This document shows, in pieces, positions 1-41,027 of a DNA stretch of 64,000 bases. The number at the start of each line of letters is the position of its first letter. Position 1 is the stretch's first letter. This DNA comes from Rhodospirillaceae bacterium (GTDB lineage: Bacteria > Pseudomonadota > Alphaproteobacteria > MPNO01 > UBA2964). The DNA lies in the NCBI GenBank assembly GCA_002709075.1, contig PAPV01000005.1, positions 13,352 to 77,351 on the forward strand, read 5' to 3'. Position numbers and translations under genes: made by a program. Below the pieces are notes generated by a model, which saw nothing but the letters and a program-made list of their open reading frames with translations, was not told where the DNA came from and made no database searches.

Positions 1-1
1 C

Positions 2-970
2 AAGAGAAAAACAAGCTGCTTATCAATTGTTATTAGTTTTTCATTGATAGGCTTCTCTGTCTTTATAATTTTACCTATGGAGCCTTTGAGAAAGGTTGAT
101 AAGAAGTCTACGGTATCATCAAAAATAATACAAAAGGAAGAAGCTTCTCCTGAAATTATAGTGATACCGAGAGCACCAGTCTTTCATTCTTTAAAAGAAA
201 AAAAATCAATTGATGCACATGAAAAGAAAAATAATTTTTCCCAAACACCTCTGCAGAGGCGGATGTTGTCAGTAAAAAAGAGAAATAACAAAGTGAAGGA
301 AGGTCAAACTCAATTTAGTACAGGAAGACTACTTGATAAAAATAGTGATGAAAGTTTATCAGAAAATAAAATAGGTGAAAATACTCTAACCGCGGCCCAA
401 AAAAAGGATAATAGCAATTTAAAAAAGGAGACCAGTGTAAGTATTCCAGACGGGCGCTTTCTTTTGAGAATACTTGAGCATGGCAAAGGTCCAGAGATAT
501 TTATTGGTTGGCCACAAAATCTTTCTGATAGGAGCCGCCTTTATCATCTTTTACGCAAGTGTTACGGGATGAAAAATGCTGTAATTAGCCAGAAGAATGT
601 GCTTTATTCAGAAGCAACTTTGCCGGGAAGAACTTGGATTCCTAACACGGATTTATTCAGTGGTTTTTTGCGTTCGCCAATTGGACAGCCAATTAAATCC
701 GAGGATCAAAATTTTGAAAAGATTGCTCAACGACATAATCTTTCAATTTGGAATCCTGTTCGAATTTTTCCAAGAAATGTTGATGCAATGATACTATCTG
801 GTTTGCGTAATTTGATTGGTCAAAAATATCAGAAAGCACAAATTGTACGAGCTCATTACATGTTGAAAGGTGGATCTTTTCTCTACCTTCATAAGATAAC
901 AGTTGATAGAAAGCCGGTTTTTGGTGAAATCAGAATTCCACTTAATAATAAATTGTTATGCGCAGCTTAA
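2..970 (+). CDS. Membrane-anchored hypothetical protein, 5'-truncated (TM helix + K/S/E-rich linker + globular C-terminal domain; TonB/TolA-like layout)
   Basis: The frame of ORF 44..970 is open to the window edge (KRKTSCLSIVISFSLIGFSVFIILP = basic residues then a TM segment). About 100 aa of low-complexity linker follow, then a folded-looking domain. The stop overlaps the next ATG (TAATG at 968-972). Confidence 0.6.
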   Translation, partial: KRKTSCLSIVISFSLIGFSVFIILPMEPLRKVDKKSTVSSKIIQKEEASPEIIVIPRAPVFHSLKEKKSIDAHEKKNNFSQTPLQRRMLSVKKRNNKVKEGQTQFSTGRLLDKNSDESLSENKIGENTLTAAQKKDNSNLKKETSVSIPDGRFLLRILEHGKGPEIFIGWPQNLSDRSRLYHLLRKCYGMKNAVISQKNVLYSEATLPGRTWIPNTDLFSGFLRSPIGQPIKSEDQNFEKIAQRHNLSIWNPVRIFPRNVDAMILSGLRNLIGQKYQKAQIVRAHYMLKGGSFLYLHKITVDRKPVFGEIRIPLNNKLLCAA

Positions 971-1641
971 TGCGTTTTCTTAGTTCAGGGCGTTTTGCTC
1001 TCATTTCTTTATGTTTTCTGATCTGGATATTGCCTGCGGCGTGTATGCAAACTTCATATTCGGAAATAAGTGATGCACCCCAAAGAACAAATTTTTTTGA
1101 TCGATCGGTGGAATTTAAGCTGTATAGAGAATTCTTTCAATTTGCACCTGAATGCGTGGTTATTTCGATAAGGTCAAGCCACGCTATAAATCCCGTAAGC
1201 TTATTAATAGCACGTTCATTTGAGAGGTATCTTAGAGATAAAATCAAAAAAGTTATTGGATTGAGACATGCAGTTAAATTATCCAGAAAGATTGGAGTCA
1301 GTTTGGATTATCAAGAAGATCGAATAATTTTCGCAAATTTGTCTAAATGCAGCTTTCTTGCAGAAATAGAGATTAGAAGAATAGAAGATACATTTCTTTT
1401 TATATGGGCAAACCGATCAATTGATTTGAATTTTCAATTATTATGTTTGCTAACAGGAAAGACCCTTTTTAAAAGTTCTCATACTGCAAAGCGGGGCAAC
1501 GGTGGAATACCGCTATCCGCATATGCCATGCCCATTTCTCTTGCTCAAGCCGCTAAGGTAACAGGGGATAGAGAGATATTTCTTTCTCTTGCTGACGATG
1601 CAGCGCGACGGATGTTAAAGCCGCTACCTGATCTGCGTTAA
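970..1641 (+). CDS. Putative lipoprotein (DUF799/LpoB/CsgG-like alpha/beta fold suspected)
   Basis: Signal peptide MRFLSSGRFALISLCFLIWILPAAC ends in a lipobox-like Cys. Translationally coupled to the upstream gene. The family guess is from overall pattern only. Confidence 0.55.
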   Translation: MRFLSSGRFALISLCFLIWILPAACMQTSYSEISDAPQRTNFFDRSVEFKLYREFFQFAPECVVISIRSSHAINPVSLLIARSFERYLRDKIKKVIGLRHAVKLSRKIGVSLDYQEDRIIFANLSKCSFLAEIEIRRIEDTFLFIWANRSIDLNFQLLCLLTGKTLFKSSHTAKRGNGGIPLSAYAMPISLAQAAKVTGDREIFLSLADDAARRMLKPLPDLR

Positions 1642-1677
1642 ATATCAAATAATCCACGTGGATTGTGTTCCTTACAT

Positions 1678-3213
1678 CTAAAAATCTTGTGACTCTGTCG
1701 AACCACTAAGTTTGCCTCGACGTAATGGAAATTTATCTTCCTTGTATCGTAACGCTTTATCTTCATTGTTAGGAATTTTTGTAGGATCTGTTGTATTTTG
1801 TTGGTGTTTAAATTTTCTAGCACCAGCAGCTTTATTTGCGTTCCAAGAGACGATCACACCATATATTCCCTGGCTGGTCACTGGATGAGGTGCTTGCCAA
1901 TCTAAAACCTCATGAATGCCGTTTATTTTTGCGAACCCTGCCCCCTGTTCCATTTTTTTTCGGGCACTCCTATTAAGTTGGACTTTCGCAACTTTATTTT
2001 TATATGTTCTTACATCTTGTGATGTTTTGGAAGCTTCTTGGAGTGCGACTGTTTGATTAATAAAGAGGCGTAATAGATTTTCAGCAGCTAATTTCGCGTT
2101 AGTCTTCGCCGCAATTATAGAACTGCTATCGTTGCGGTCGACCTCAGATTGTCCGTATGAAATTAAGTTAACGTGGCCATTTTCGTCTACTTTAATCGTT
2201 AAACCCCAGCTATTAATTAAATCAAATAATTCGTTTTGATTATTCGGATTTGGAAGTTGATCTCTGATAGGTCGATTTGGAAACAGGGTTGGTACACCAG
2301 AAAAATTTCTGGCTGCCATTGCATCGGCTAGTCTCTCTGATTTTCGGCTATATCGCAAAACTACGCAAATTTGTGCATACTGATTATTTGTTGTTAAATT
2401 TTCGCTAACATACTGAGTGTATATACCTTTCATACGTTCTTTTGCTGTCGCTTCGATTATTTCGTCAAATTGGCGAGTGCGAAGTAATTTTTTAGCCTCC
2501 TCTTCAGCCTTTTTTGCTGCCTTTATAAGCTCTTGACGTTTGGTCTGATTTGACTCATTTCGTGCTTTTTTTTCGGCATCTATATCGATGCCACGCTTTC
2601 TTAAATCCTCGTCAATCAGGGTATTTAGCCATTTAAAGCCTTTATCCATAGTACTAGACAAGGAGGGTTTTTGATAACGTTTTTGATCCAAGAGAGCCAA
2701 TTTTTTCCGTAAACTGGCTGCCTGATCAGCCGCACTTTTCTCAGTTTTATTCAAGGATGTTTGGGGAGCTAATCTAACGCTTGCTTCGCTCAAGATCTTT
2801 TTTTCTAGCGAGGCAGCCATTTTCGTATTTGCATCCATCCATGCTTCACGAAATGCTACATAGCGACTATCAATGAAACCGGGCTGCCCAATCTTTATTT
2901 CCGTAGATGCAATCCCTAGCGCTAAAGCAAATTCATTATTTTTACTCAGGTTGTTGAACCCTTCGGTCCAACCTTTTTCTCTTATATATTTTCCACATGA
3001 ACTTCCGCTAATAGTTCTCGCCATGCTCAATCTAAGCATAGTTCCTTGTTTCGGTGAGAAACCGGTGATTTTACCATTTACATCAACATTTGAGGGTAAG
3101 AATTTAGTCTGAACTTGAGCAAAAGCACTAAACGTTAAAAAAGAAAGAATACTTGCAAATACGATTAATGAACCTGATTCTGTAAAGTTAACTTTCCGGA
3201 TCCTTAATTTCAT
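1678..3213 (-). CDS. Secreted protein, DUF6844-like (Campylobacter Cj0092-like)
   Basis: 511 aa ORF with a Sec signal (..FLTFSAFA|Q) and a central coiled-coil. Motifs FIDSRYVAFREAW and DENGHVNLISYGQ recall DUF6844 proteins. Lies directly downstream of a CsgG-family gene. Confidence 0.55.
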   Translation of the reverse strand: MKLRIRKVNFTESGSLIVFASILSFLTFSAFAQVQTKFLPSNVDVNGKITGFSPKQGTMLRLSMARTISGSSCGKYIREKGWTEGFNNLSKNNEFALALGIASTEIKIGQPGFIDSRYVAFREAWMDANTKMAASLEKKILSEASVRLAPQTSLNKTEKSAADQAASLRKKLALLDQKRYQKPSLSSTMDKGFKWLNTLIDEDLRKRGIDIDAEKKARNESNQTKRQELIKAAKKAEEEAKKLLRTRQFDEIIEATAKERMKGIYTQYVSENLTTNNQYAQICVVLRYSRKSERLADAMAARNFSGVPTLFPNRPIRDQLPNPNNQNELFDLINSWGLTIKVDENGHVNLISYGQSEVDRNDSSSIIAAKTNAKLAAENLLRLFINQTVALQEASKTSQDVRTYKNKVAKVQLNRSARKKMEQGAGFAKINGIHEVLDWQAPHPVTSQGIYGVIVSWNANKAAGARKFKHQQNTTDPTKIPNNEDKALRYKEDKFPLRRGKLSGSTESQDF

Positions 3214-3260
3214 TTTTTACACCACCATATTTAATTTGTATTTTTGCAACCTTATCTATG

Positions 3261-4514
3261 TCAGTCTGTTTGAAAATCGAGATCAATCATCTTCTCAATA
3301 TCACTGAATTTTTTTTTAATAATTCTCTTTCGGTAATTTTGTTGTTGTTGGCGAGCGATAAGATCACTCTTTAATATGTCACTGCGAGCAATCTTTAAAT
3401 CAACAATTTCTCCTGTGGAAACTTTTGATTGACTTCCAATTATTTTTATCATCCCAACAGTTTCTTCTTTTCTTCCCAAAGATTCTCCTGTGTATGGGTC
3501 AATAAGTTTTCTACCCAACGCCACAAGATTGTATTGGGTTCCAATTTTGACCGTGTCTCCACCCTGGCCAAGCGTGACTATATTTCCACTTACATCTAAA
3601 ACTGATATAGGAAAGATCGCGTCCACGATCTTTCTACCGAAAATTTCTGCAAACTTCCTTGCTAAAGTCTCCATCGAGCCATCCTTATGGCTCAGTTGCT
3701 CGGTTGCAGAAAATTTTATCTGTGTGCTGACAATATCAATAATTCTTATAGTAATTTTCGCCGACGTCTTAGTGGTTTTTATGAGTTGCCCTGTCGTTTT
3801 AATTGCAGTTTTTGAAAGTTTATAACGCGCTCGTTCTACAAGCCCAGTAATTATATAATCAGCACCAAGACGATTACCTAAACGTGCCAATTCATCTGCG
3901 TTTGTTCCATCCCTTTTTAAGAAGTCTAACTCACTGTCTTGTTCGTCAAGAAAAATACGGTCGAGCACTGCAAATTTTCGAGACTGTGTAATATAATTTT
4001 CTAAATTAAGGCGAAAAACCCTTTCAAAATTCTGTATATGACTTTTGGGAGTCGTTTTTTCCAAAATCCTAAGAGGAACAAGAGACAGTTTTATGCGGCG
4101 CAATTGAGAATTGTGTTTAAATACTGGAACGGTGACTCTTAATAATACACGATAAAGTTTAGATCGTGTATCTTTTTTTCGACTTATAATTTCATAGCTT
4201 TTTACAATTCCCTGTGTTCTTTTCGAAATACTTTCCTCAAAAAATTTTTTAGTTTGTGTAATCTTTTTATTATTTTTAGAAAAAGCTTTTTGAGACAACA
4301 AATTGTTAGCCCGGCTGCTTATTATTGATCCGTTAACTTTATTTATACCTACTATCAATGCTCTTTCTACTGCACGTTGCAGACTAACACCCCTACCTTC
4401 TGCGTCTACAGTTCGATATTCGATGCGGGCACTAACATTTCTGGTGCTGAGTAAAATTAAACAAATCAACGTAATACAGGTAGCTGACAAGTACACAGGT
4501 TTATTTTGTATCAT
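3261..4514 (-). CDS. CsgG/HfaB-family exported protein with FlgT-like three-domain architecture
   Basis: Sec signal (..RNVSA|R); N-domain VDAEGRGVSLQRAVERAL; middle CsgG-like segment TQSRKFAVLDR...LGADYIITG; C-terminal LIDPYTGESLG beta-domain. Confidence 0.75.
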   Translation of the reverse strand: MIQNKPVYLSATCITLICLILLSTRNVSARIEYRTVDAEGRGVSLQRAVERALIVGINKVNGSIISSRANNLLSQKAFSKNNKKITQTKKFFEESISKRTQGIVKSYEIISRKKDTRSKLYRVLLRVTVPVFKHNSQLRRIKLSLVPLRILEKTTPKSHIQNFERVFRLNLENYITQSRKFAVLDRIFLDEQDSELDFLKRDGTNADELARLGNRLGADYIITGLVERARYKLSKTAIKTTGQLIKTTKTSAKITIRIIDIVSTQIKFSATEQLSHKDGSMETLARKFAEIFGRKIVDAIFPISVLDVSGNIVTLGQGGDTVKIGTQYNLVALGRKLIDPYTGESLGRKEETVGMIKIIGSQSKVSTGEIVDLKIARSDILKSDLIARQQQQNYRKRIIKKKFSDIEKMIDLDFQTD

Positions 4515-4529
4515 CAGAAACCACCTTAG

Positions 4530-5645
4530 CTATTTCAAACCCTTTTTTTGCAATTCTTTTGCAATAATTTGCCCTGTCATTTTTCCTGCTCTCATCAATG
4601 CATTAGTTCGAGCAGATTTTTCATTTGTCCCAAGTCCAGACCATTGTTTTTGAACTGCAGAAACTTTTCTAGAGAATCTTTTTGAGACATCATAAACTGC
4701 TACATTAACACGAACGGACACCATTCTGCGTCCACGATAATTTCGGGCGGCATCAACTGTCATACTGCCTCGTGCAAAAAACTTAAAGTCACACCGTCGC
4801 GCGGCTTTGCGTATTTGATTCCAGTGTCTACCTGCCATTTTGTTTTTACTTTTGAAAATAGAGGATACTGTCTCGGCTGAGGGAATTTGCCCACATTCAT
4901 CGGCGGCCCCAACCAACTCGCCATATGGCGTCCATTCGTATCCAGCGTTTGTCAATTGTCCGCTGACTGCCGTATTAAAGTCATCATCACTGATAATTTT
5001 GTATTTTATATTATCAGATTTTCTTATTGTGCTGCCACCCGTTTCACTCTTCTGTTTAGACACATCCGCGTTGTAAACCAGCGCTTTACCATCTGAGGCC
5101 TGAGAAATTTGCTTAGATTTTGCTTTACTCAGAGATTTAGAATTTTTCTTTCGATTTACGTCAAATGTTTCCGCAGTTTGAGCCTGTCTTGCAATAAAAA
5201 GGGCTGTGAACGCGGAACCTGCACCGGATACTATAGGTTGTTTCTTCTTAATATTGAGTGCCTGTAAAATTCGTGTACTGTCGATATTTAAACAGACATC
5301 GGTTTTTAAAGTTTGTTCAGACTCAGAAAATTCACGTTTGCCAGCTTCATTATAATTAGAGATGTAAAAACCCAAATTTTTAAGAAAAATATTTTTTTTT
5401 AACTCATAAGCTTTAAACTGATCTCCATCGAGAGAATGGATAAAATTTTTCCACGCGGCCAATACAGCTTTTTTCTTCCCATCTATTATATGCTCATCGG
5501 AAGCTTCTTCCACCTCCTCATATTCATCAGTTTTTATTACTGAAGTACCCTTAATACATGAGGCAGAAAGGATTGAAGTAGATATTACAAAAGATAAAAA
5601 AAAGGCGATGTATGCTATGATCATATTTTTGGGTAAAACTAACAT
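4530..5645 (-). CDS. Secreted hypothetical protein (possible FlgT-N/TolB-N-like domains)
   Basis: 371 aa ORF with a hydrophobic N-terminal signal, 15 nt upstream of the CsgG-like gene. RBS-like AGGAAGG upstream. Confidence 0.65.
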   Translation of the reverse strand: MLVLPKNMIIAYIAFFLSFVISTSILSASCIKGTSVIKTDEYEEVEEASDEHIIDGKKKAVLAAWKNFIHSLDGDQFKAYELKKNIFLKNLGFYISNYNEAGKREFSESEQTLKTDVCLNIDSTRILQALNIKKKQPIVSGAGSAFTALFIARQAQTAETFDVNRKKNSKSLSKAKSKQISQASDGKALVYNADVSKQKSETGGSTIRKSDNIKYKIISDDDFNTAVSGQLTNAGYEWTPYGELVGAADECGQIPSAETVSSIFKSKNKMAGRHWNQIRKAARRCDFKFFARGSMTVDAARNYRGRRMVSVRVNVAVYDVSKRFSRKVSAVQKQWSGLGTNEKSARTNALMRAGKMTGQIIAKELQKKGLK

Positions 5646-5713
5646 TTAACCTTCCTAGTTTTTTTAGCATTAAAAGGTAAAATATAAAAAAAACTGACTA
5701 AAGGAAACAAAAA

Positions 5714-7078
5714 ATGAAACTTCTCCATTTATCCCGCAGACAGGTGATAAAGGGTATGACTGCTGGTAGTTTTATTGCTTCTTTTGACTCCGCTGTATCT
5801 GCAGTTCCGCGGATACCAATTAGGATTCTTTGGACTGGGGTTACATTTATGCGGAGCTGTCCAATCGAAAGTGCTTCTTGCAAAGAATTAGATGACTATT
5901 TTCCTCATACCTGGGCTACGCTCTCTAGCAGCGTTGGAAATAGTGAAAAAATTCATTTACTAGATAAGGTGGTATTCAGATCAGTTGCTCCAATTACGGG
6001 CAAATATAATAATATTCGAATGATTTTCCCGGGGCCGGAAAATTCATTTGGTGCGTCAATCGAGACAAATTTGGGGATGTTTGTTGGCATATCATCGGAT
6101 AGAGACATTGCACATCACTATGTAAAATCAGAGAACCAACTTGTTCAAATTGCGGAATTGCAGACTTACGTAATTGTTTTTGACATAAAAAACTATTCTA
6201 TTATTCAGAGTTATCCTCTTCGTTTTGTGGGAATTGATTCGACACAGAAAAAAAATAGACGAGAGTTTGTTAAAAAAATGCAGTGGGAAACACTTGTGGG
6301 CACTGGTTCAAATGAAAAAAGTTTATCCAGAGCTCTTGCAAAAACTTTAAAAAAACTTGTCGTCAATCAACAAAAACCCGTCGGTGTAAGGGTAACGAGG
6401 ATACAATTAAAGGGTGTTGCTAAGAAATGGTTAGAGCAGGAACCAACCGCATCAAAACATACGGAGAGTGATTATCGTGAAATACTTGGTAATGCTTTGA
6501 CCTCAGCCATTTCGGAGAAACTTCAAATAGGTATACAACCATTTTCTCCTGCTGATTCCATCATGCGTGTAACCGACAGCATGGTTAACAAAAGCAGTGA
6601 ACTCTTAGATAAAGATTTTAATAATGGAAATATTGATTGGGATATCCGTTTAACGGCTTTTGGAACCCAAATACAAAATAAAAGGATTGCCGGAAGAAAG
6701 TACCTTTTTAATCGCAGAATAGACATATTTGTTGGAATTTCAGTGGGTAAGTATAAACGCTCCTATGCTGATGAACAAAGACTTATTGAAATTAAAGAAG
6801 ACCAAATTCTTGAAAAGGAAGTATTTAAAAATAAATTTCATGCAGTTTCAATAGAAGAAACAACTGGCACGTGGTCAAACAACTGGTTTTATGCGCTTGA
6901 TCTTCATACAAGACTATTCGAGTGGCTTTTTGAAAATTTGAGAAAAGAAAACTACGCACTTATTTTTAATGGGGAACAAAAAAATCTAAAAACTAGAAGG
7001 TTTCTTACGAAAGCTCACTCGCACAATTTTTCTCAATTTAAAGAACAAGCGAAGGCTCTAAGAAATATTTTAATATGA
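5714..7078 (+). CDS. Putative Tat-exported hypothetical protein
   Basis: 454 aa ORF. N-terminus LSRRQVIKG matches the twin-arginine motif, with cleavage at ..SAVSA|V. RBS AAGGA upstream. Confidence 0.65.
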   Translation: MKLLHLSRRQVIKGMTAGSFIASFDSAVSAVPRIPIRILWTGVTFMRSCPIESASCKELDDYFPHTWATLSSSVGNSEKIHLLDKVVFRSVAPITGKYNNIRMIFPGPENSFGASIETNLGMFVGISSDRDIAHHYVKSENQLVQIAELQTYVIVFDIKNYSIIQSYPLRFVGIDSTQKKNRREFVKKMQWETLVGTGSNEKSLSRALAKTLKKLVVNQQKPVGVRVTRIQLKGVAKKWLEQEPTASKHTESDYREILGNALTSAISEKLQIGIQPFSPADSIMRVTDSMVNKSSELLDKDFNNGNIDWDIRLTAFGTQIQNKRIAGRKYLFNRRIDIFVGISVGKYKRSYADEQRLIEIKEDQILEKEVFKNKFHAVSIEETTGTWSNNWFYALDLHTRLFEWLFENLRKENYALIFNGEQKNLKTRRFLTKAHSHNFSQFKEQAKALRNILI

Positions 7079-7096
7079 AATTGTATCACTGAAACG

Positions 7097-8470
7097 TTAC
7101 TGGTCAAAAATCTTCATGTTTGCTTCTTCCGCATTAATGATGCCATTATTTACAGGGATTTCTTTTTTTGCTGCGTAATCTGTAAGTGCGTGATGGAGTT
7201 TGCAGGCTGTTTTGAGGCCTTTGTCCATTGCTGGTGCAACTGCCACAGTGTCACTCAGTGAACCAAAGTTGTTGAAAAAGCTGAGAGTAGTTTTTCCTAA
7301 TTGCGCAATAACATACCTGTTCATTCCTCTTGCTCTTTTCAGTTTCTCTTTTCCAATTGGGTCGAGTTCATGCGTTGCATTAGAAATTTTTCTTTCAACC
7401 AAATCGGCTGCCGCTGTGGAGATCCTCACCAGCTTTCTTATAACCTGTTGGTTTTCATCAGCTTGATTTACCAAATCTTGAAAGCGTTTTTTTATTTCTG
7501 CTTGCTCTTTAGCAAAATCAAAGGCCTCGAGAAGGAGAAGCCCAGCTTGCATCTGGATCCTAACTAATTTTTCTGTGTCTCTTCTTAAGGTTGACCCGGA
7601 ATTGCTTACAATTTGCCTTTTTAGATCTGCTTTGATTTTCAACGCCTGAGCTGCATAACGCCGGTTACGTTCATGATATGGGTTTCTGGGATCCACAGCA
7701 ACAATGTGAAATAGTTTGACGATATTTTGCCATTCGTTCCCATCTTGGTTTTTCCAGTCGTCAGGATTTGAGAGAACATTTGCTGCTTTGGGTATGTTTT
7801 GTCTTACTCCATCGATGCCGAAGAAGAGCCGATGTCCAACAACATAAATTGCACCCAACGAAAAGTTTTCATATGCATCCATCAATATACGTTCTTGGTA
7901 GGCTTGTTTTGTATGAACACCGTTGAAATGAGCAAGTATTAGAGAATATGCAAACTTGGCATCATTTTGTTCTATTTCATCAAGGTCGTCGTTTGAAATT
8001 GCATATTTGATTTTTGCTGCAATCTCTAGTCTTCTTAGCCCGTCTACAATAAAGTTCTCAAAAAGACGTTGAATCTTCGAGGAATTAAATCCATTTCGAT
8101 ACCAAATAAGGTCCCGTGCCCATTTTTTTCCGTCCAATCTATTCATAAAGATAATGTTTTGTGTATCCGTTGTACCTTTGTTGAAATCTACAGCTACATC
8201 TTTTTTTATTGACTTAATATTAGCGTCAGATGCGTCATGCATCCATTCAAGTGGATCTGCATTTCTTCTGCATAGAAAACTAATAATAGAACCAGAAGAA
8301 TAATTTAGATTGCCATTTTGGTCTTGGGTATCTGGCTGAATAAAGGTAGGCGAATTATTTTTTGAAAGATTTTTAAACAAATTGTTTAGTTCAAAAGCAT
8401 ATGTGTTTGTGTTTGAACCCAATAGAAAAATAAATATAAAATATTTAACAATTAGAGCTGATTTACGCAT
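7097..8470 (-). CDS. Secreted helical protein with a possible Sel1-like repeat and a coiled-coil C-terminus
   Basis: 457 aa ORF with a Sec signal (..TNTYA|F). AIYVVGHRLFFGIDGVRQNIPKA resembles a Sel1 repeat. Confidence 0.6.
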   Translation of the reverse strand: MRKSALIVKYFIFIFLLGSNTNTYAFELNNLFKNLSKNNSPTFIQPDTQDQNGNLNYSSGSIISFLCRRNADPLEWMHDASDANIKSIKKDVAVDFNKGTTDTQNIIFMNRLDGKKWARDLIWYRNGFNSSKIQRLFENFIVDGLRRLEIAAKIKYAISNDDLDEIEQNDAKFAYSLILAHFNGVHTKQAYQERILMDAYENFSLGAIYVVGHRLFFGIDGVRQNIPKAANVLSNPDDWKNQDGNEWQNIVKLFHIVAVDPRNPYHERNRRYAAQALKIKADLKRQIVSNSGSTLRRDTEKLVRIQMQAGLLLLEAFDFAKEQAEIKKRFQDLVNQADENQQVIRKLVRISTAAADLVERKISNATHELDPIGKEKLKRARGMNRYVIAQLGKTTLSFFNNFGSLSDTVAVAPAMDKGLKTACKLHHALTDYAAKKEIPVNNGIINAEEANMKIFDQ

Positions 8471-8744
8471 TTATTTGTCCTGAAATATTACTATTCAAGG
8501 CGACAACTTATTTTTTTCCGGACAGTGTTTTCCAAATTTAGCCAATTTATCAGATACCTTGCTGAAAATAAATTAGATATTTGGAAAAAATATGTAAATT
8601 AAAGTTAGGCCGGCACTTGTTTGTTCTTCTAAAAACCTAAAATAGGATGGTAATTTAATTATATATAAAGTGATAAATTTTTGCTATCTAAATTTTGGCT
8701 TTAATAGCCCCAAAGACTTTAAGCTTGTTTATCAAATAACGGTA

Positions 8745-8951
8745 ATGAACTTAACAATGATTAGTCTTCATGTAGTAGTTTGTCATTTCTGCTTTGAAAA
8801 TTTTGAGGTGGAAATAGAAACCGATGGGTTGTTCACCGGAAAAAATCTTGAGATATTTGATTGCACAGTGTGTTGTAACCCTAATAAAGTAGAATACAGT
8901 GTTTGGGATGGAATAACTTCTATTCGAAATGTCGGCGATGGAAATGCATAA
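8745..8951 (+). CDS. Small cysteine-rich protein, CPXCG-motif family (zinc ribbon)
   Basis: CHFC...DCTVCCNP pattern typical of the CPXCG family (DCxVCCxP). Start ATG is 8745 or 8757. Confidence 0.7.
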   Translation: MNLTMISLHVVVCHFCFENFEVEIETDGLFTGKNLEIFDCTVCCNPNKVEYSVWDGITSIRNVGDGNA

Positions 8952-9041
8952 ATGGGTAAATAATGCGTCAATGAGATTAAGACTTAGAAAAAAACTACTC
9001 AAAAAAGTAAGTTGTCAAGTCAATGTAAACAGCTAATAGAT

Positions 9042-9419
9042 CTAATCCTTCAACCATGGCAATTGCCCGTCCCAGTCAATATCTAAATTATACCTTTCCA
9101 TAAGGTATGAGCGTACTTTCTTCTCAGAACTTCTTGTTACTGTTGATACATCTGTCCCAAAATAGAGCCACTCGCTTCCCGTAATTGCCCTGCAAAATAA
9201 TTCTTCACTTAAAGCTTTATGTTTTCTACTATGGTGATGACTGATAACTCTTAATCTAACAACATTCTTTTTATCACCAAACCCAATCTTAAGATCAATA
9301 GAGACATCTTGTGCGTTAAAGGTTTGATCTTGCGTGTGCGTTACTGAGACAGCCCCAGGTGGGCTTCTGTCGAAAAGGTCGATATAGTCTTCTTGGTTCT
9401 TAACCATAACCTTCCACAT
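9042..9419 (-). CDS. Hypothetical protein (125 aa)
   Basis: ATG start, protein-like composition, no competing long ORF. Confidence 0.55.
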   Translation of the reverse strand: MWKVMVKNQEDYIDLFDRSPPGAVSVTHTQDQTFNAQDVSIDLKIGFGDKKNVVRLRVISHHHSRKHKALSEELFCRAITGSEWLYFGTDVSTVTRSSEKKVRSYLMERYNLDIDWDGQLPWLKD

Positions 9420-9585
9420 CGGTATCCGTGGTTTGTGAATTTCTTTGTTTAATGTACGTAATACTCTTTACTCTAGATTTTTAAGAAATCCCGTAAGAAA
9501 AATAAATAATTTATTTAAACCGATTAAGGTTTCCTAAATTTTCGTCGAAAAGCAGTTTTGCACGGCTTTTTTGTGGAGTGAAGAA

Positions 9586-10482: not shown

Positions 10483-11718
10483 ATGCAGAGAACATTGTTC
10501 GGAGAAATCGGCTCGGTATTATCGCATCGGCAATACCGATTATATTTTTTTTCGAATTTAATTTCTTCTATTGGTAGGTGGATTTATAGGTCATCTGCCG
10601 CGTGGTTCACTTGGGAATTAACCGATTCCTATGAGTGGTTAGGTATAATAGCGTTTGCCGATATTTTCCCAATGGTTATATTGGCAATGATTGCTGGTGC
10701 TTTGTCAGATCGCATTGGGTATATGCGGGTTATCAAATTTACTCAATTTTTTGCTTGGGTGCTCGCACTGATATTAGCGATCCTAATCCTCACAGATCTT
10801 ATAACCATATGGGTGTTACTCGGCATTACAATTCTGCACGGATGTAACGAGGCAATGTCTACCCCTCCGAGACTCTCCATTGTCAATGCGCTTGTGCCCA
10901 AAGAAAAGCTCTCTACAGCCATTGGTTTAAACTCGGCGGCATTTAACGCTTGTAGGGTTTTTGGTCCGGCAATTGGTGGTGGTTTGTTGTTATTCTTCAA
11001 CGCGGGATGGGTTTTTGGTATTGCAGCGCTAACTTTCGTGCAATTTTATGTTGCATTATTTTTTATCCGCACGGAGTCTGGTAATGCTGGTGGTCATGGA
11101 AAACCTTCTTTTAGTATATTAAAGGATATTGGTGAGGGAGTCAGTTATGCATGGAATATGCCCGGCATTCGTTTCTTGTTGGCTCTTCTTGCTCTTCAGG
11201 GTGTGTTGTTGCGTCCTTTTATGGAGCTGGCCCCAGGCTTTGCGGATAAGGTTTTTGGTATGCAATCTGACGGTATGGCAATTATCCTGTCTTCGGTAGG
11301 GTTTGGCGGACTGATTGGTTCACTTTTTATCGCTCGGCGGGGTAAAATAGCTGGGCTAACGATGTTGGTGACCTGGTGTGTCGGGCTCCAGTCAGTTGCA
11401 TTGATGTTGTTTGTTGCAACTAATTACATTTGGCTTGGTACAGTCTTTTTATTTGTTATTGGTGTAACTATGCTTGTGTCTGGCGCAGGGTCTCAAACAT
11501 TAATTCAGAATACCGTCGCTTCATCTGTTCGGGCTAGGGTCATGAGTTTATTTGTAATGCTGTCATGGGGTTTACCGGCAGTAGGTGCGTGGATTGAGGG
11601 TATGTTGGCTGAATTCTATGGCTTGCGATGGACCGTTGGTTTTGGAGCAGCTGTTTGTCTCGTATTAGGTATTTGGTCGATCAGATGGGGGAAAAAATAT
11701 AGAAGTGAATTAGAATAA
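10483..11718 (+). CDS. MFS transporter (MFS_3/DUF894-like)
   Basis: About 12 hydrophobic segments; GALSDRIG motif A; RARVMS in the C-terminal half. Confidence 0.9.
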   Translation: MQRTLFGEIGSVLSHRQYRLYFFSNLISSIGRWIYRSSAAWFTWELTDSYEWLGIIAFADIFPMVILAMIAGALSDRIGYMRVIKFTQFFAWVLALILAILILTDLITIWVLLGITILHGCNEAMSTPPRLSIVNALVPKEKLSTAIGLNSAAFNACRVFGPAIGGGLLLFFNAGWVFGIAALTFVQFYVALFFIRTESGNAGGHGKPSFSILKDIGEGVSYAWNMPGIRFLLALLALQGVLLRPFMELAPGFADKVFGMQSDGMAIILSSVGFGGLIGSLFIARRGKIAGLTMLVTWCVGLQSVALMLFVATNYIWLGTVFLFVIGVTMLVSGAGSQTLIQNTVASSVRARVMSLFVMLSWGLPAVGAWIEGMLAEFYGLRWTVGFGAAVCLVLGIWSIRWGKKYRSELE

Positions 11719-38437: not shown

Positions 38438-39697
38438 ATGGTAATAAAAAATAACGTAAAAAGTGCCTTCGGAGCGTGGACCCAAAGAAATTATGCATGG
38501 TACATGGGTGGCGCTTCGGTTTCTTTATTTGGAATGTGGGCTCAGCGTATTGCAGTTGCGTGGTTAGCTTGGGAGCTAACTCGTTCTGAACTGTGGTTAG
38601 GTTTGATAGCTTTTGCAGATCTCTTTCCGACAGTTATAATTACTCCAATAGCTGGAGCAATAGCTGACCGAACAAATCGTTTATGGATGTCGCGGATTAG
38701 CATTTTCCTCGCCGGTTGCCAAGCGTTTATGCTTGCATGGATGGCGTACAACGGTTATTTGACCGAAGCTTCTGATGTATGGTGGCTATTCTTTCTTTCT
38801 TTGTTTCTTGGAATCGTTATGGCCTTTGCTACCGCCGCTAGATTGTCAATGGTTCCATTATTGATAGAGCCCGATTTTTTGCCCTCTGCATTGGCTAATG
38901 ATGCAGCAATTTTTAATAGTGCTCGGGTTGTGGGACCGATGCTTGCGGCACTTATAATATCTACTTGGAATGCTGGCACCGCATTTTTGCTAAATGGTTT
39001 TGTTTTCATGATTTTTGTTTGTTGTTTGATGGTAGTAAGGCTTCTTCGTAATGAGTCCAAGAGCAGTCCTAGTGGCAATGTGATAGCTGATACTATAGAG
39101 GGTATGCGTGCTGCGGCTGTACACCAGGGTATTGGGCCAATGTTGATTGTACTGTCTGCTGTTGCCATTGGTGTAAAATCATTCTTTGATCTATTACCTG
39201 CTGTCTCAGATGAAGTTTTTAATGCTGGAGTAGATGGTTTTGCGCACCTCGCTGCTGCGGGCGGTTTCGGGGCTGTATCAGCCGCAATTTGGTTAGCAAT
39301 GCGCGGAAGTTTAGAGGGATTAACCTCAATAACATTAGGTGCAATGGCTATTGGAATGGCTGGAATTTCACTGATGTGTGCGACAGATAATATATGGATC
39401 GGTTTGCTTGGTTCATTCTTTGGAGGGGTAGCTGTGACTTTATGCGGAACGGGGACCCAAACACTGATGCAAAATGCTGTAGAGGGTCATCTCCGTGGTC
39501 GTATAATGTCAATTTATGGAATGTTACACCGCGGCGCCCCCGCCGTTGGTGCGCTTACAATGGGGGCTGCAGCTGAAATCTTTGGAGTGCAATGGGCATT
39601 AATCACTACTTGTACAATTGTTTGTGCCCCGGTGCTTTTGTGGGCATGGCCACGCAGAACAAAAATCGCCAAAGCCCTTGAGAATAACGAATACTAA
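38438..39697 (+). CDS. MFS transporter (MFS_3/DUF894-like)
   Basis: About 12 TMs; AWLAWELT, GAIADRTNR, LRGRIMSIY. Confidence 0.9.
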   Translation: MVIKNNVKSAFGAWTQRNYAWYMGGASVSLFGMWAQRIAVAWLAWELTRSELWLGLIAFADLFPTVIITPIAGAIADRTNRLWMSRISIFLAGCQAFMLAWMAYNGYLTEASDVWWLFFLSLFLGIVMAFATAARLSMVPLLIEPDFLPSALANDAAIFNSARVVGPMLAALIISTWNAGTAFLLNGFVFMIFVCCLMVVRLLRNESKSSPSGNVIADTIEGMRAAAVHQGIGPMLIVLSAVAIGVKSFFDLLPAVSDEVFNAGVDGFAHLAAAGGFGAVSAAIWLAMRGSLEGLTSITLGAMAIGMAGISLMCATDNIWIGLLGSFFGGVAVTLCGTGTQTLMQNAVEGHLRGRIMSIYGMLHRGAPAVGALTMGAAAEIFGVQWALITTCTIVCAPVLLWAWPRRTKIAKALENNEY

Positions 39698-39764: not shown

Positions 39765-41027
39765 ATGGCTTCAGAAAGAACTAAAAAACCCGTTGCCTTT
39801 CGCGTCATCATGCAAAAAACCTATGGTTTATACACGGCTGGAAGTACAATTTCATTATTTGGGATGTGGGCGCACAAGCTTGCTACCGCATGGCTTGCTT
39901 GGGAGTTAACGAAGTCAAGTTTTTGGGTGGGGTTAGTTGCTTTCTCTGAACTTGTTCCAACTTTGTTATTAACGCCGTTTGCCGGTGTCTTAGTGGAACG
40001 CTATGACCGGTTAAGATTGATAAGAATTAGCCAATTTTGTGGGATGATTCAATCACTCGCACTCGCCTTGATGGTTTTAACAGGCCAAATGTCAGAATAT
40101 CATGACATTTATTGGCTTATTGTTTGGACTGTCTTCCTTGGTATCGTATGGTCCTTGAATACTGCGGCGAGATTGTCTGTTGTGCCTAATCTTGTTTTAC
40201 GTGATGACGTACCATCTGCAGTTGCAATGAATTCAGCGATATTTAATTTAGCCCGAGTTATAGGTCCTGCTCTTGGTGGCTGGCTTATTTTTAGAGGTGG
40301 TGTAGGAGAAGCATTTCTATTCAACAGCGTGACTTATATTTTTTTTATTATCGCTCTATTTCTGATAAAACCAGTGCGAGATGATCGCCGTCCAGCTACC
40401 GGAAGAAGTATAATTAGCCAAGCTGCTGATGGCATTCATTATGCATCACACCATCCAGGAATTGGTCCTTTGCTTGTTGTTTTAATAGCAATGGCCTTGG
40501 GTGGTAAATCACTACTGGAGCTTATGCCAGAATTTGTTGATAAAGTTTTTCACACTGGTGAAGTTGGCCTCGGATACCTTTTCTCTGCGGCGGGAGCAGG
40601 TGGTCTTTTTGCAGCTGTTTGGTTGACTGCTCGAGGCAGAGTTGAAGGTCTGACAACCATTTCAATTGGTGCTTTATTTGCAACAGCGATTGCTGTTTTC
40701 TCTTTCGTAATAACAGAATCGTTCTTTGTTGCATTAATATCAGTGTTCCTTTTAGGTGTTACTGGAATATGTGGTGGTACTTCGACCCAGACATTGATGC
40801 AACACGCAGTGGATGAAAACCTGAGGGGCCGTGTAATGAGTCTCTATGGTATGATAAATCGAGGTGCACCAGCTCTAGGCGCTTTAGCTATGGGTGCACT
40901 TGCTGAGGTATTTGGCATTCGTTATGCAGTAGCGATTGGCAGTGCCGTATGCATTTTAGTTTGGATATGGGTGTTACCTAAAACATCTGCCCTGCGCAGC
41001 ATTCTTGAAACCAAACAAAATCGTTAG
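39765..41027 (+). CDS. MFS transporter (MFS_3/DUF894-like), tandem paralog
   Basis: About 12 TMs; AWLAWELT, GVLVERYDR, LRGRVMSLY. Confidence 0.9.
   Translation: MASERTKKPVAFRVIMQKTYGLYTAGSTISLFGMWAHKLATAWLAWELTKSSFWVGLVAFSELVPTLLLTPFAGVLVERYDRLRLIRISQFCGMIQSLALALMVLTGQMSEYHDIYWLIVWTVFLGIVWSLNTAARLSVVPNLVLRDDVPSAVAMNSAIFNLARVIGPALGGWLIFRGGVGEAFLFNSVTYIFFIIALFLIKPVRDDRRPATGRSIISQAADGIHYASHHPGIGPLLVVLIAMALGGKSLLELMPEFVDKVFHTGEVGLGYLFSAAGAGGLFAAVWLTARGRVEGLTTISIGALFATAIAVFSFVITESFFVALISVFLLGVTGICGGTSTQTLMQHAVDENLRGRVMSLYGMINRGAPALGALAMGALAEVFGIRYAVAIGSAVCILVWIWVLPKTSALRSILETKQNR

Follow-up and report, generated by a model that had tools for sequence, protein, structure and literature searches.

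CsgG, the curli secretion channel, which works with curlin, is an outer-membrane lipoprotein with a lipobox cysteine, and two β-hairpins per subunit build its 36-strand barrel. FlgT, which has three domains including a C-terminal β domain, has a role in the H ring, and TsaP, which belongs to type IV pili, clasps the secretin. These proteins, together with the Campylobacter gene row cj0089-cj0093, are the described systems closest to a gene block that fills the first 8,470 nucleotides of a 64,000-nucleotide stretch from a Rhodospirillaceae bacterium (contig PAPV01000005.1, here C5; C5:13352-77351; genome 99.89% complete), hereafter the window; the stretch upstream of it is designated L001. The block consists of seven genes, O1 to O7, and we report here that O3-O7 are a widespread, conserved and undescribed cassette that represents a variant form of the cj0089-cj0093 row, and that O1 and O2 belong to another conserved cluster.

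According to a study of cj0089 and cj0091 for adhesion and CmeR regulation, cj0089-cj0091 are co-transcribed, Cj0089 is found in the inner-membrane fraction and Cj0091 in the outer membrane, and inactivation of cj0091, not that of cj0089, lowered adherence and early chicken colonisation (PMC3100323). Cj0093 is reported in another paper as upregulated in biofilm (PMC11202532), and three others (PMC10963506, PMC13649117 and PMC6329530) mention DUF6844, FTT_1539c, Cj0092 or Cj0093 in passing. The Francisella protein FTT_1539c, whose solved structure (PDB 4qvr) is titled 'uncharacterized hypothetical protein', is described as an immunoreactive protein (sera of mice vaccinated with outer-membrane vesicles; an MHC-II peptide). 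In the accessible texts of the literature searched, with subscription journals and supplements outside its scope, we found no account of the function or assembly of such a cassette, its members being named only in passing.

An initial annotation of the window had described seven consecutive open reading frames (ORFs) with spacers of at most 68 nt, each with an export or anchor signal and none with a recognisable enzyme motif, in a window containing no curlin, holdfast or flagellar genes, and all of this was confirmed. Apart from a 13-nt overlap between O1 and O2, the spacers from O2 to O7 are 36, 47, 15, 68 and 18 nt. Export or anchor signals, which were judged by direct reading of the N-termini and by conservation among homologues, are present in all seven proteins. 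For none of the seven did Pfam, NCBIfam or PADLOC indicate an enzyme family; the NCBIfam and PADLOC searches returned nothing significant, and only O4 exceeded Pfam cut-offs. No Pfam family for curlin, holdfast or flagellar proteins was found in the 40 other ORFs of the window that were scanned. Since the genes lie on both strands (+ + - - - + -), they make up at least three transcription units (coordinates in Table 1).

Relatives of the cassette were collected around O4. Among 8000 scored candidates, 127 proteins belonged to the O4 family at E <= 0.001, with the source names CsgG/HfaB family; using one peptide pattern and one genome per species (185,579 species), we obtained 142 O4 relatives in 152 stretches, from which 80 loci were kept. 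ORFs were called in these 80 and in five earlier loci, and iterated hidden Markov model searches with the block proteins gave matches to O3 in 47, O5 in 29, O6 in 24, O7 in eight, O1 in ten and O2 in four of the 85 loci; O4 was labelled in 81, the other four lacking this label in the greedy ORF maps. O3 and O4 were encoded on the same strand and no more than 160 nt apart in 41 of the 43 loci having both. The gap between them had a median of 9 nt (the corresponding spacer in the window being longer), 14 pairs overlapped, and both gene orders occurred, with O4 first in 19 loci and O3 first in 22. The O3-O4 loci derive from Alpha-, Beta- and Gammaproteobacteria, Campylobacterota, Desulfobacterota/Myxococcota, Acidobacteria and others; named carriers include Oceanimonas smirnovii, Roseomonas populi and Maridesulfovibrio species.

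The genes accompanying O4 were counted in the 39 loci with at least 5 kb on both sides of it (the other 42 labelled loci were left out). O3 was found in 27 of these loci, O5 in 16, O6, which goes with O5, in 15, O7 in six (all Alphaproteobacteria), a gene of about 220 aa, named X225, in six, an LpoB-like gene in 18 and a 465-aa family with weak TPR matches in 20. Either O5 or the LpoB-like gene was located near O4 in 34 of the 39 loci, never both, and neither of them in five. The LpoB-like genes of these sister cassettes are true members of the LpoB family (Pfam E 1e-33 to 1e-45), and a DUF1425-sized ORF lies immediately upstream of 16 of 35 of them, matching Pfam DUF1425 in both cases tested; ycfL and lpoB are adjacent in E. 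coli. Three layouts were distinguished: type A, O6-O5-(X225)-O4-O3, co-directional, from Alpha- and Betaproteobacteria, Maridesulfovibrio, a Myxococcales metagenome-assembled genome (MAG), and Flavobacterium and Opitutales MAGs; type B, TPR-(DUF1425)-LpoB-O3-O4, from Gammaproteobacteria and Campylobacterota; and type C, which is type B minus O3, from Planctomycetota. The copy in the window is a rearranged type A that lacks X225, has O6 in inverted orientation and contains O7 in addition. The homology and synteny of the cassette are thus established across these lineages, and the synteny that the initial annotation had expected of the whole block holds in part, namely for the adjacent O3 and O4 and for O5 and O6 with O4, whereas O1 and O2 belong to the other cluster.

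That annotation had also described DUF6844 and CsgG-family genes as neighbours in the cj0089-cj0093 row, which fits our data: the order in Campylobacterota is TPR, DUF1425, LpoB, DUF6844 (O3) and O4, with the O3-O4 pair adjacent in loci L083, L087, L089 and L056. For example, L083 encodes a TPR-like protein of 461 aa, a DUF1425 protein of 140 aa, an LpoB protein of 207 aa, O3 and O4. Judging from related MAG loci, Cj0092 and Cj0093 would be the orthologues of O3 and O4. The sizes in L083 fit those reported for cj0089 (1362 bp, TPR) and cj0091 (624 bp), which cj0092 closely follows (PMC3100323). The window shares the O3-O4 hub with these loci. In contrast, the window and L001 contain no TPR, DUF1425 or LpoB-like genes, and O5, O6 and O7 are found instead.

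O3 is a real, folded and expressed family. Its profile (A2, 32 sequences) matched the FTT_1539c chain 4qvr_A with an E value of 5.1e-60, profile positions 1-444 aligning to chain residues 25-480, and FTT_1539c is a full-length homologue of O3. Clustered at 50% identity, the family comprised 1367, 1066 and 688 clusters at E <= 1e-3, 1e-10 and 1e-30, respectively. DUF6844 (PF20891) was matched by 23 of the 32 profile members at E <= 0.001 (best 9.9e-28); O3 of the window itself scored 20.6 bits against this model, under the cut-off of 27.

For O4, the match to Pfam CsgG (PF03783) reached 26.1 bits against a cut-off of 20.8, covering only model positions 47-164 of 210, and that to Pfam LpoB (PF13036), for which the cut-off is 22.3, reached 22.7 bits and spanned 62 residues only. 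The C-terminal domain (profile A1, positions 298-371) matched TsaP of a solved secretin complex (6ve2_O, E 3.8e-9), and A1 matched the CsgG chains in the solved-structure set weakly (E ~0.03). Among the 23 sequences of A1, no conserved lipobox cysteine was found at the end of the signal peptide, and the cleavage sites look like those of signal peptidase I. Among 20 family alignments compared by hhalign, only two pairs stood out, O5 with O4 (68% probability, E 4.7e-5) and the LpoB-like family with DUF1425 (61%, over a 27-column signal-peptide region); X225 with LpoB and O2 with X225 gave 7% or less. These sequence comparisons suggest that O4 comprises an O5-related N-terminal domain, a CsgG/LpoB-type middle domain (~170-290) and a TsaP-like C-terminal β domain (~298-371).

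Structural models were compared with solved structures for O5 and O6, whose profiles gave nothing significant against solved-structure sequences. The AlphaFold2 model of O5 (26 sequences) had a predicted local distance difference test score (pLDDT) of 78.7, and its best Foldseek matches were to FlgT (8z5n_0, E 4.6e-7; 3w1e, E 1.7e-6), followed by CT253, CsgG and GNA1162. By VIA comparison, residues 142-371 matched CsgG (Z 10.8; root-mean-square deviation, rmsd, 4.5 over 145 aligned residues), TolB (Z 10.8; 2.5, 115), PelC (Z 10.7; 3.2, 136) and LpoB (4q6l_A, Z 9.2; 2.7, 111), residues 28-132 matched Lpp20 (Z 7.4; 3.5, 94), and residues 71-369, spanning both domains, matched FlgT (Z 10.2; 3.7, 146). 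O5 is thus predicted to have two domains, an N-terminal one (28-132) resembling Lpp20 and a second one (142-371) of the CsgG/TolB-N/PelC/LpoB-like type, arranged as the N and M domains of FlgT are. Residues 159-209 of O5 form a Ser/Thr/Lys-rich, disordered loop (pLDDT < 50) with a conserved TGGST-like motif, (T/S)GGST..K, whose Gly204 is invariant in the 26 sequences; a membrane hairpin was considered for this loop and rejected, the segment being polar and of low complexity.

The AlphaFold2 model of O6 (23 sequences; pLDDT 76.5, predicted template-modelling score 0.81) gave Foldseek matches to HpaA (E 1.2e-4) and FlgT (E 7.8e-4). Residues 223-452 matched FlgT (8z5n_5, VIA Z 10.0; rmsd 3.5 over 140 residues), the LptE homologue Cj1090c (Z 9.7; 3.2, 123), PqiC (Z 9.1; 3.4, 128) and a chain of the PelC dodecamer (Z 8.6; 3.1, 116), and residues 33-222 matched HpaA (Z 7.9; 4.9, 156) and CsgG (Z 7.0; 3.9, 148). 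The model therefore points to two domains of one α/β fold in O6, the first (33-222) HpaA/CsgG-like and the second (223-452) FlgT-M/LptE/PqiC/PelC-like; in the protein atlas, O6 retrieved only unnamed look-alike clusters. O6 contains SRRQVIK in its N-terminal region; among 23 aligned homologues, 11 (alpha and beta lineages) have a twin-arginine motif, the rest having Sec-type signals. The export route of O6, as read from these sequences, varies by lineage. O7 was found in alphaproteobacterial cassettes only, always convergent with O6; it matched no Pfam family, and a weak match of its profile (A5, 8 sequences) to a Sel1-repeat protein (6ok3_A) hints at a possible helical repeat protein of the Sel1/TPR-like kind.

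The C-termini of the cassette proteins were then compared. In 150 O3 representatives, the last residue was Phe in 138 and any aromatic residue in 141, and the last two residues were Asp-Phe in 100; O3 of the window ends in Asp-Phe (1678-1683), and the tail ahead of these two residues is Gly/Ser/Asp-rich. The LpoB-like proteins of type B and C cassettes (loci L036-L095) ended in Trp in 34 of 35 cases, and the 80 locus copies of O4 ended in Trp in 22 and in Phe-Asp in 26. An aromatic end was found in five of nine X225 proteins, and in one of 29 O5, four of 25 O6 and none of eight O7 proteins. We infer that the conserved acidic-aromatic C-termini would act as docking tails, perhaps for a TPR or Sel1-like component.

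The cassette is independent of curli, flagella and secretins, in agreement with the initial annotation, which had called the block neither curli nor flagellar. The curlin repeat (Curlin_rpt, PF07012) had no match in the nearly complete genome, with a positive E. coli control (CsgE and CsgF were not searched for), and FlgT_C (PF16538) had no genome match at E <= 1; FlgT families were likewise absent among the Pfam matches of O3-O7 at E <= 1. FlhA and FlgH are encoded on the same contig, about 230 kb from the block, and the single secretin of the genome is on another contig. Among five O4-positive genomes that are at least 98% complete, FlhA was found in two and a secretin above cut-off in one, and the closed genome G329 (99% complete) carries the cassette O6-O5-X225-O4-O3 with neither an FlhA nor a secretin match.

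FlgT (Vibrio H ring, 3w1e; LPHT ring, 8z5n) resembles O5, the model of which suggests an N domain followed by a TolB-N-like M domain, and the second domain of O6; O4 is connected to this fold by its hhalign similarity to O5 only and, like FlgT, also carries a putative C-terminal β domain. However, the template-modelling scores with FlgT are low (0.29-0.32), and the domain orientation therefore differs; moreover, there is neither Pfam-level membership nor a link to flagellar genes. CsgG is approached by O4 in Pfam, by O5 and, at Z 7.0, by the first domain of O6, whereas the O4 family differs from it in lacking a conserved lipobox and in matching only part of the domain, the genome contains no curlin and no sign of membrane hairpins was seen. 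The C-terminal domain of O4 aligns to both C-terminal repeats of TsaP (6ve2, 3jc8), including the DPxTxExLG motif, whereas O4 lacks a LysM domain, no gene for a secretin is nearby, and there are cassette-bearing genomes in which no secretin was detected.

The initial annotation had treated all seven genes as one unit, a view that the comparison did not sustain. When the sequence upstream of base 1 was inspected, as that annotation had recommended, the run of exported-protein genes was found to begin earlier, with eight further co-directional genes, U1-U8, each with an N-terminal hydrophobic segment, leading into O1. U1-U8 together with O1 and O2 are a conserved 10-gene cluster, hereafter Module 1, starting about 5 kb upstream of the window. 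Around eight U7 matches (L106-L113), Module-1 genes, O1 and O2 among them, keep their order, which is conserved in seven alphaproteobacterial loci other than the present one, and none of these loci has O3-O7 in the 20 kb retrieved. In a sample of 301 genomes of the class, with an O4 profile cut-off of E <= 1e-15, U7 was found in ten genomes and O4 in nine, both being present only in G000 and G176 (two of 17 carriers), and in G176 the two genes are on separate contigs. Of the nine U7 carriers other than G000, six had no O4 match and two had partial, weak ones. Because Module-1 loci lack O3-O7 and U7 and O4 rarely co-occur, we regard O1 and O2 as the end of Module 1 and O3-O7 (1678-8470) as a separate Module 2. 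In the related SAR116-type loci L012, L016, L018 and L043, the modules lie side by side as they do here, and Module-1 genes (U2, U3 and O1) stand beside O5-O4-O3-O7/O6 in another arrangement in L024-L026 and L055; as these loci are kin within Alphaproteobacteria, they are only a hint of cooperation between the modules. Among 41 related genomes, six contain O4; G024 retains U1 through O4 in order, G018 O2-O6, G001 only O3-O7, and G019 O3, O4, O5 and O6 plus extra genes.

Traces of the stretch were also found in environmental data. Eight marine metagenome runs contain at least half of its sampled words, and one marine metatranscriptome (X18) yielded eight contigs of 153-221 nt, at least 99% identical to the block, lying on O4, O5, O7 and the convergent gene ends (bins without cover carry no meaning in X18). 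These contigs give a weak hint of transcription of the block. Two of them (1540-1755 and 6954-7122) bridge the convergent 3' ends of O2/O3 and of O6/O7, which may reflect read-through overlap or library DNA.

We tentatively favour, with a little less than even confidence, the explanation that O3-O7 are one accessory cassette of periplasmic proteins that use a recurring fold to build a probably ring-like scaffold close to the outer membrane. Folds and gene order only are the basis on which we propose a complex, its ring shape and its function, and the envelope-spanning reach put forward in the initial annotation would have the same basis. O4 would be the hub, with its CsgG/LpoB/TolB-N-type middle and TsaP-like β domain, and O3 its obligate partner; O5, with one copy of the fold plus the Lpp20-like domain, and O6, with two copies, would add tiers. 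O5 and O6 are elsewhere replaced by an LpoB-like lipoprotein together with a DUF1425 protein and a TPR lipoprotein, and O7, helical and possibly Sel1-like, would be a clade-specific adaptor. Docking would be served by the acidic-aromatic ends, which O3 has in common with the O4 and LpoB-like proteins of many lineages. Since the cassette contains no enzyme, ATPase or membrane channel, we read it as structural, either as envelope architecture or as a housing or anchor for something else, and not as a pump.

Several points weigh against this scaffold. The fold is also common in monomeric or non-ring periplasmic proteins such as LpoB, TolB-N and LptE, so that sharing it does not tell a function, and VIA Z scores below 8, as obtained for the first domain of O6 and the N domain of O5, may mark merely a common arrangement. 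The three domains of O4 are read from sequence profiles and from likeness to O5, the match of O7 to the Sel1-repeat protein is weak (E 0.0064), and hhalign gave at most 2.4% for O6-O4, O3-O4 and O7-TPR. With O6 inverted and X225 missing, the cassette may be incomplete in this genome, and with O4 in so few close relatives, it is dispensable. Finally, the X18 RNA contigs are possibly library DNA, and two of them bridge convergent ends.

The proteins may instead form no complex at all and be co-regulated, separately acting periplasmic or outer-membrane factors in envelope homeostasis or adhesion, such as LpoB-type regulators of cell-wall synthases or adhesins of the HpaA/Cj0091 type, which we consider unlikely. 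The score of O4 above the LpoB cut-off, the true LpoB genes in sister cassettes and HpaA among the structural matches of O6 would be expected in that case, as would the reportedly reduced adherence and colonisation after cj0091 inactivation (PMC3100323) and the upregulation of Cj0093 in biofilm (PMC11202532). However, the tight adjacency of O3 and O4 survives inversion of their order, the way in which one set of partners cleanly replaces the other would sooner be expected of subunits than of factors acting independently, and O4, O5 and O3 have no lipobox and are hence not surface lipoprotein adhesins. Larger in scope, and rather improbable in our judgement, is a single machine in which Modules 1 and 2 (15 genes, C5:8327-21821) would make up a proton-motive-force-driven, envelope-spanning, non-flagellar apparatus of SAR116-type marine Alphaproteobacteria. 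U7 (MotA/ExbB-like) and U2 (MotB/ExbD-like) would then be an inner-membrane stator and O1 a TolA/TonB-like rod or transducer, for which the SLT protein U3 would open the wall, with U1 providing anchorage to the wall; the rod would contact O4, O5 and O6 together with O3 as stacked rings beneath the outer membrane, with the Asp-Phe and Trp tails as connectors. The adjacency of the modules here and in the eight loci named above, the U7 match to ZorA and its atlas annotation, the SLT and PG_binding_1 domains of U3 and U1, the invariant Glu15 of U2, the TolA/TonB-like layout of O1 and an isoelectric point (pI) above 9 in all 15 proteins speak for such a machine. Yet U7 and O4 occur together in only two of the 301 genomes, on separate contigs in one of them, and most other U7 carriers have no O4 match; the eight Module-1 loci contain no O3-O7 in the fetched stretch, Module 2 is found in many phyla without Module 1, and the loci with adjacent modules, all related Alphaproteobacteria, are not independent. 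Furthermore, Pfam, the solved-structure profile search and hhalign (0.7%) do not support U7 as a MotA/ExbB protein, and U2 and O1 have no detectable relatives among Pfam families or solved structures.

A CsgG-like secretion system, in which O4, perhaps with O5 and O6, would be an outer-membrane pore exporting a substrate such as O3, seems quite improbable. The CsgG score of O4, the naming of its relatives as CsgG/HfaB family and the O5-CsgG similarity are in line with it, whereas the match leaves out both ends of the CsgG model, the O4 family has no conserved lipobox cysteine, and its middle domain of ~158 aa, compared with ~260 aa in CsgG, would leave little space for two hairpins. In addition, the sole long loop, that of O5, is not amphipathic but polar and rich in Ser, Thr and Lys, and the genome contains no curlin repeat. 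A collar accessory to the flagellar motor or to a secretin, comparable to FlgT or TsaP, is disfavoured and highly improbable: it would agree with the best Foldseek match of O5 (FlgT of the Vibrio LPHT ring), with the TsaP match of O4 and with the presence of FlhA, FlgH and one secretin in the genome, but the flagellar genes are distant and the secretin is on a different contig, no FlgT_C is found in the genome, 35 of 41 relatives have no O4, and only two of the five nearly complete O4-positive genomes had FlhA and only one a secretin above cut-off, with no match to either in G329.

With three of the cassette proteins sharing the FlgT/CsgG/PelC/LptE fold, and with the system independent of flagella, secretins and curli, a group of 'hypothetical periplasmic proteins' becomes a concrete hypothesis, that of a new outer-membrane-proximal scaffold, which predicts mutual dependence of the components, docking by aromatic tails and, in cryo-electron tomography, a periplasmic density missing from deletion mutants. 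The O3-O4 pair and its alternative partner sets span many phyla, with relatives in Campylobacter and Francisella. Should the single machine of both modules be true instead, the O3-O4 cassette would be a general ring-building kit working with various partners in at least six phyla. The neighbouring, unannotated Module 1 is of interest as well, since U7, with 935 relatives, may be a minimal MotA/ExbB-type channel.

Table 1. Coordinates of the features discussed (positions refer to the window unless L or C5 is given)
Feature	Position	Strand	Description
O1	2-970	+	335 aa; start 38 nt upstream of the window, L001 13314
O2	958-1641	+	227 aa, predicted lipoprotein
O3	1678-3213	-	511 aa, Sec-type, DUF6844 family
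O4	3261-4514	-	417 aa, Sec-type, putative CsgG/LpoB-type middle and TsaP-like C-terminal domain
O5	4530-5645	-	371 aa, Sec-type, two predicted domains
O6	5714-7078	+	454 aa, twin-arginine signal (5714-5800), predicted tandem domains
O7	7097-8470	-	457 aa, Sec-type, two invariant Cys
Module 1	C5:8327-14992 (L001 8327-14321 and window 958-1641)		U1-U8, O1 and O2
U1-U8	L001 8327-13327		eight genes upstream of O1
U1	upstream, L001		PG_binding_1, 40.6 bits (Pfam)
U2	upstream, L001		short bitopic protein, invariant Glu15 in single transmembrane helix
U3	upstream, L001		SLT, 77.9 bits (Pfam)
U4	upstream, L001		lipobox
U5, U6, U8	upstream, L001		N-terminal hydrophobic segments
U7	upstream, L001		~160 aa, three transmembrane segments
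Histidine kinase and OmpR-type response regulator	L001 6108-8279	-	directly upstream of Module 1
Three extra Module-1 proteins	L106 4603-8089; L112 4041-7763; L110 12225-14065		559-623, ~181 and 421-440 aa
X18 contigs	1540-1755; 3410-3562; 3634-3795; 5490-5652; 6954-7122; 7332-7501; 7630-7819; 8104-8290		metatranscriptome contigs on the block
CPXCG ORF	8670-8951	+	small, Cys-rich
MFS_3-type transporters	10483-11718; 38438-39697; 39765-41027		three paralogues
FlgH	C5:248089		
FlhA	C5:259587		
Secretin	contig C18		

Module 1 was characterised further. In O1, a bitopic protein, the transmembrane segment at residues 19-37 is followed by an extended linker rich in Pro and Lys and by a conserved C-terminal domain (~170 aa) in which two cysteines are invariant (11-sequence alignment); O1 matched no Pfam family and no solved-structure sequence, and it is syntenic with U4-U8 in L106-L112. 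The lipobox residue Cys29 of O2 is invariant in all seven aligned homologues, which share a conserved GG(L/I)P(L)S motif; O2 matched no Pfam family and nothing significant among solved-structure sequences, and it follows O1 in L012, L016, L018, L108, L109 and L110. A homologue search with U2 gave 12 matches, all unannotated, and no relative of U2 was detected among Pfam families or solved-structure sequences.

For U7, the evidence is mixed. The family comprises 935 proteins at E <= 0.001 (988 candidates), none of which has a Pfam family. U7 matched the PADLOC ZorA (MotA/ExbB/TolQ) model with an E value of 2.9e-5, and in the protein atlas it obtained a score of 0.91 with PF01618 on 21 of 30 feature matches. 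However, U7 matched nothing in Pfam at E <= 0.1, four of 25 family members matched PF01618 with a best E of 1, and a genome scan with PF01618 found only two loci, other than U7. The U7 profile matched no solved-structure sequence, and hhalign against 23 MotA/ExbB proteins gave the very low probability cited above, the aligned parts being the two conserved transmembrane motifs. U7 may be a minimal MotA/ExbB-type channel. NCBIfam and PADLOC searches with the upstream genes were significant only for U7 (ZorA) and for SLT models; Zorya was considered for Module 1 and rejected, as U7 does not have the long ZorA tail, no ZorB, ZorC or ZorD model was matched and the cluster is full of exported proteins.

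Compared with the Tol-Pal, Ton and Mot systems, Module 1 shares a three-transmembrane protein with a ZorA/MotA-type match (U7), an intramembrane acidic residue (U2), a Pro-rich linker (O1), a peptidoglycan-binding protein and lipoproteins. In contrast, U7, U2 and O1 have no Pfam membership, U7 is only ~160 aa long, and the content (SLT, U4-U6 and U8) and order of Module 1 fit no described operon of these systems. In some Module-1 loci, three conserved, apparently cytoplasmic proteins are encoded between U3 and U4 (Table 1); no signal peptide is visible in their N-termini, they matched no Pfam family, and tblastn of the present genome found none of them. The histidine kinase and response regulator pair adjoins Module 1 also in L012, at 56% and 74% identity, and in L107, a distant locus, at 27% and 38%, and it is a candidate regulator of Module 1.

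With regard to the genomic setting, a crude export predictor (a hydrophobic 10-mer in the first 60 residues; greedy ORF calls of at least 100 aa) flagged 692 of 2157 ORFs of the genome. The longest flagged run consists of 16 consecutive ORFs (C5:4255-18996) and includes the block up to O5, the runner-up having nine. The GC content of the block is 37.1%, compared with 40.4% in the genome, and falls in the lowest 1.5% of 13.5-kb windows. For the contig's initial 22 kb (C5:1-21821, covering L001 and window 1-8470), the values are 36.0% and 37.1%, both under the genome value. The low GC content and the patchy occurrence of O4 among the relatives fit an accessory region. A promoter and terminator scan of 1-9500 gave 18 promoter-like sites, fewer than the 28.6 in shuffles, and no informative terminators.

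The remainder of the window contains housekeeping and metabolism genes. Just past the block lies a small Cys-rich ORF matching Pfam CPXCG (27.7 bits against a cut-off of 25.2); as the match covers the whole family model from residue 36 on, the true start may be later. Three paralogous MFS_3-type transporters are also encoded in the window (Table 1).

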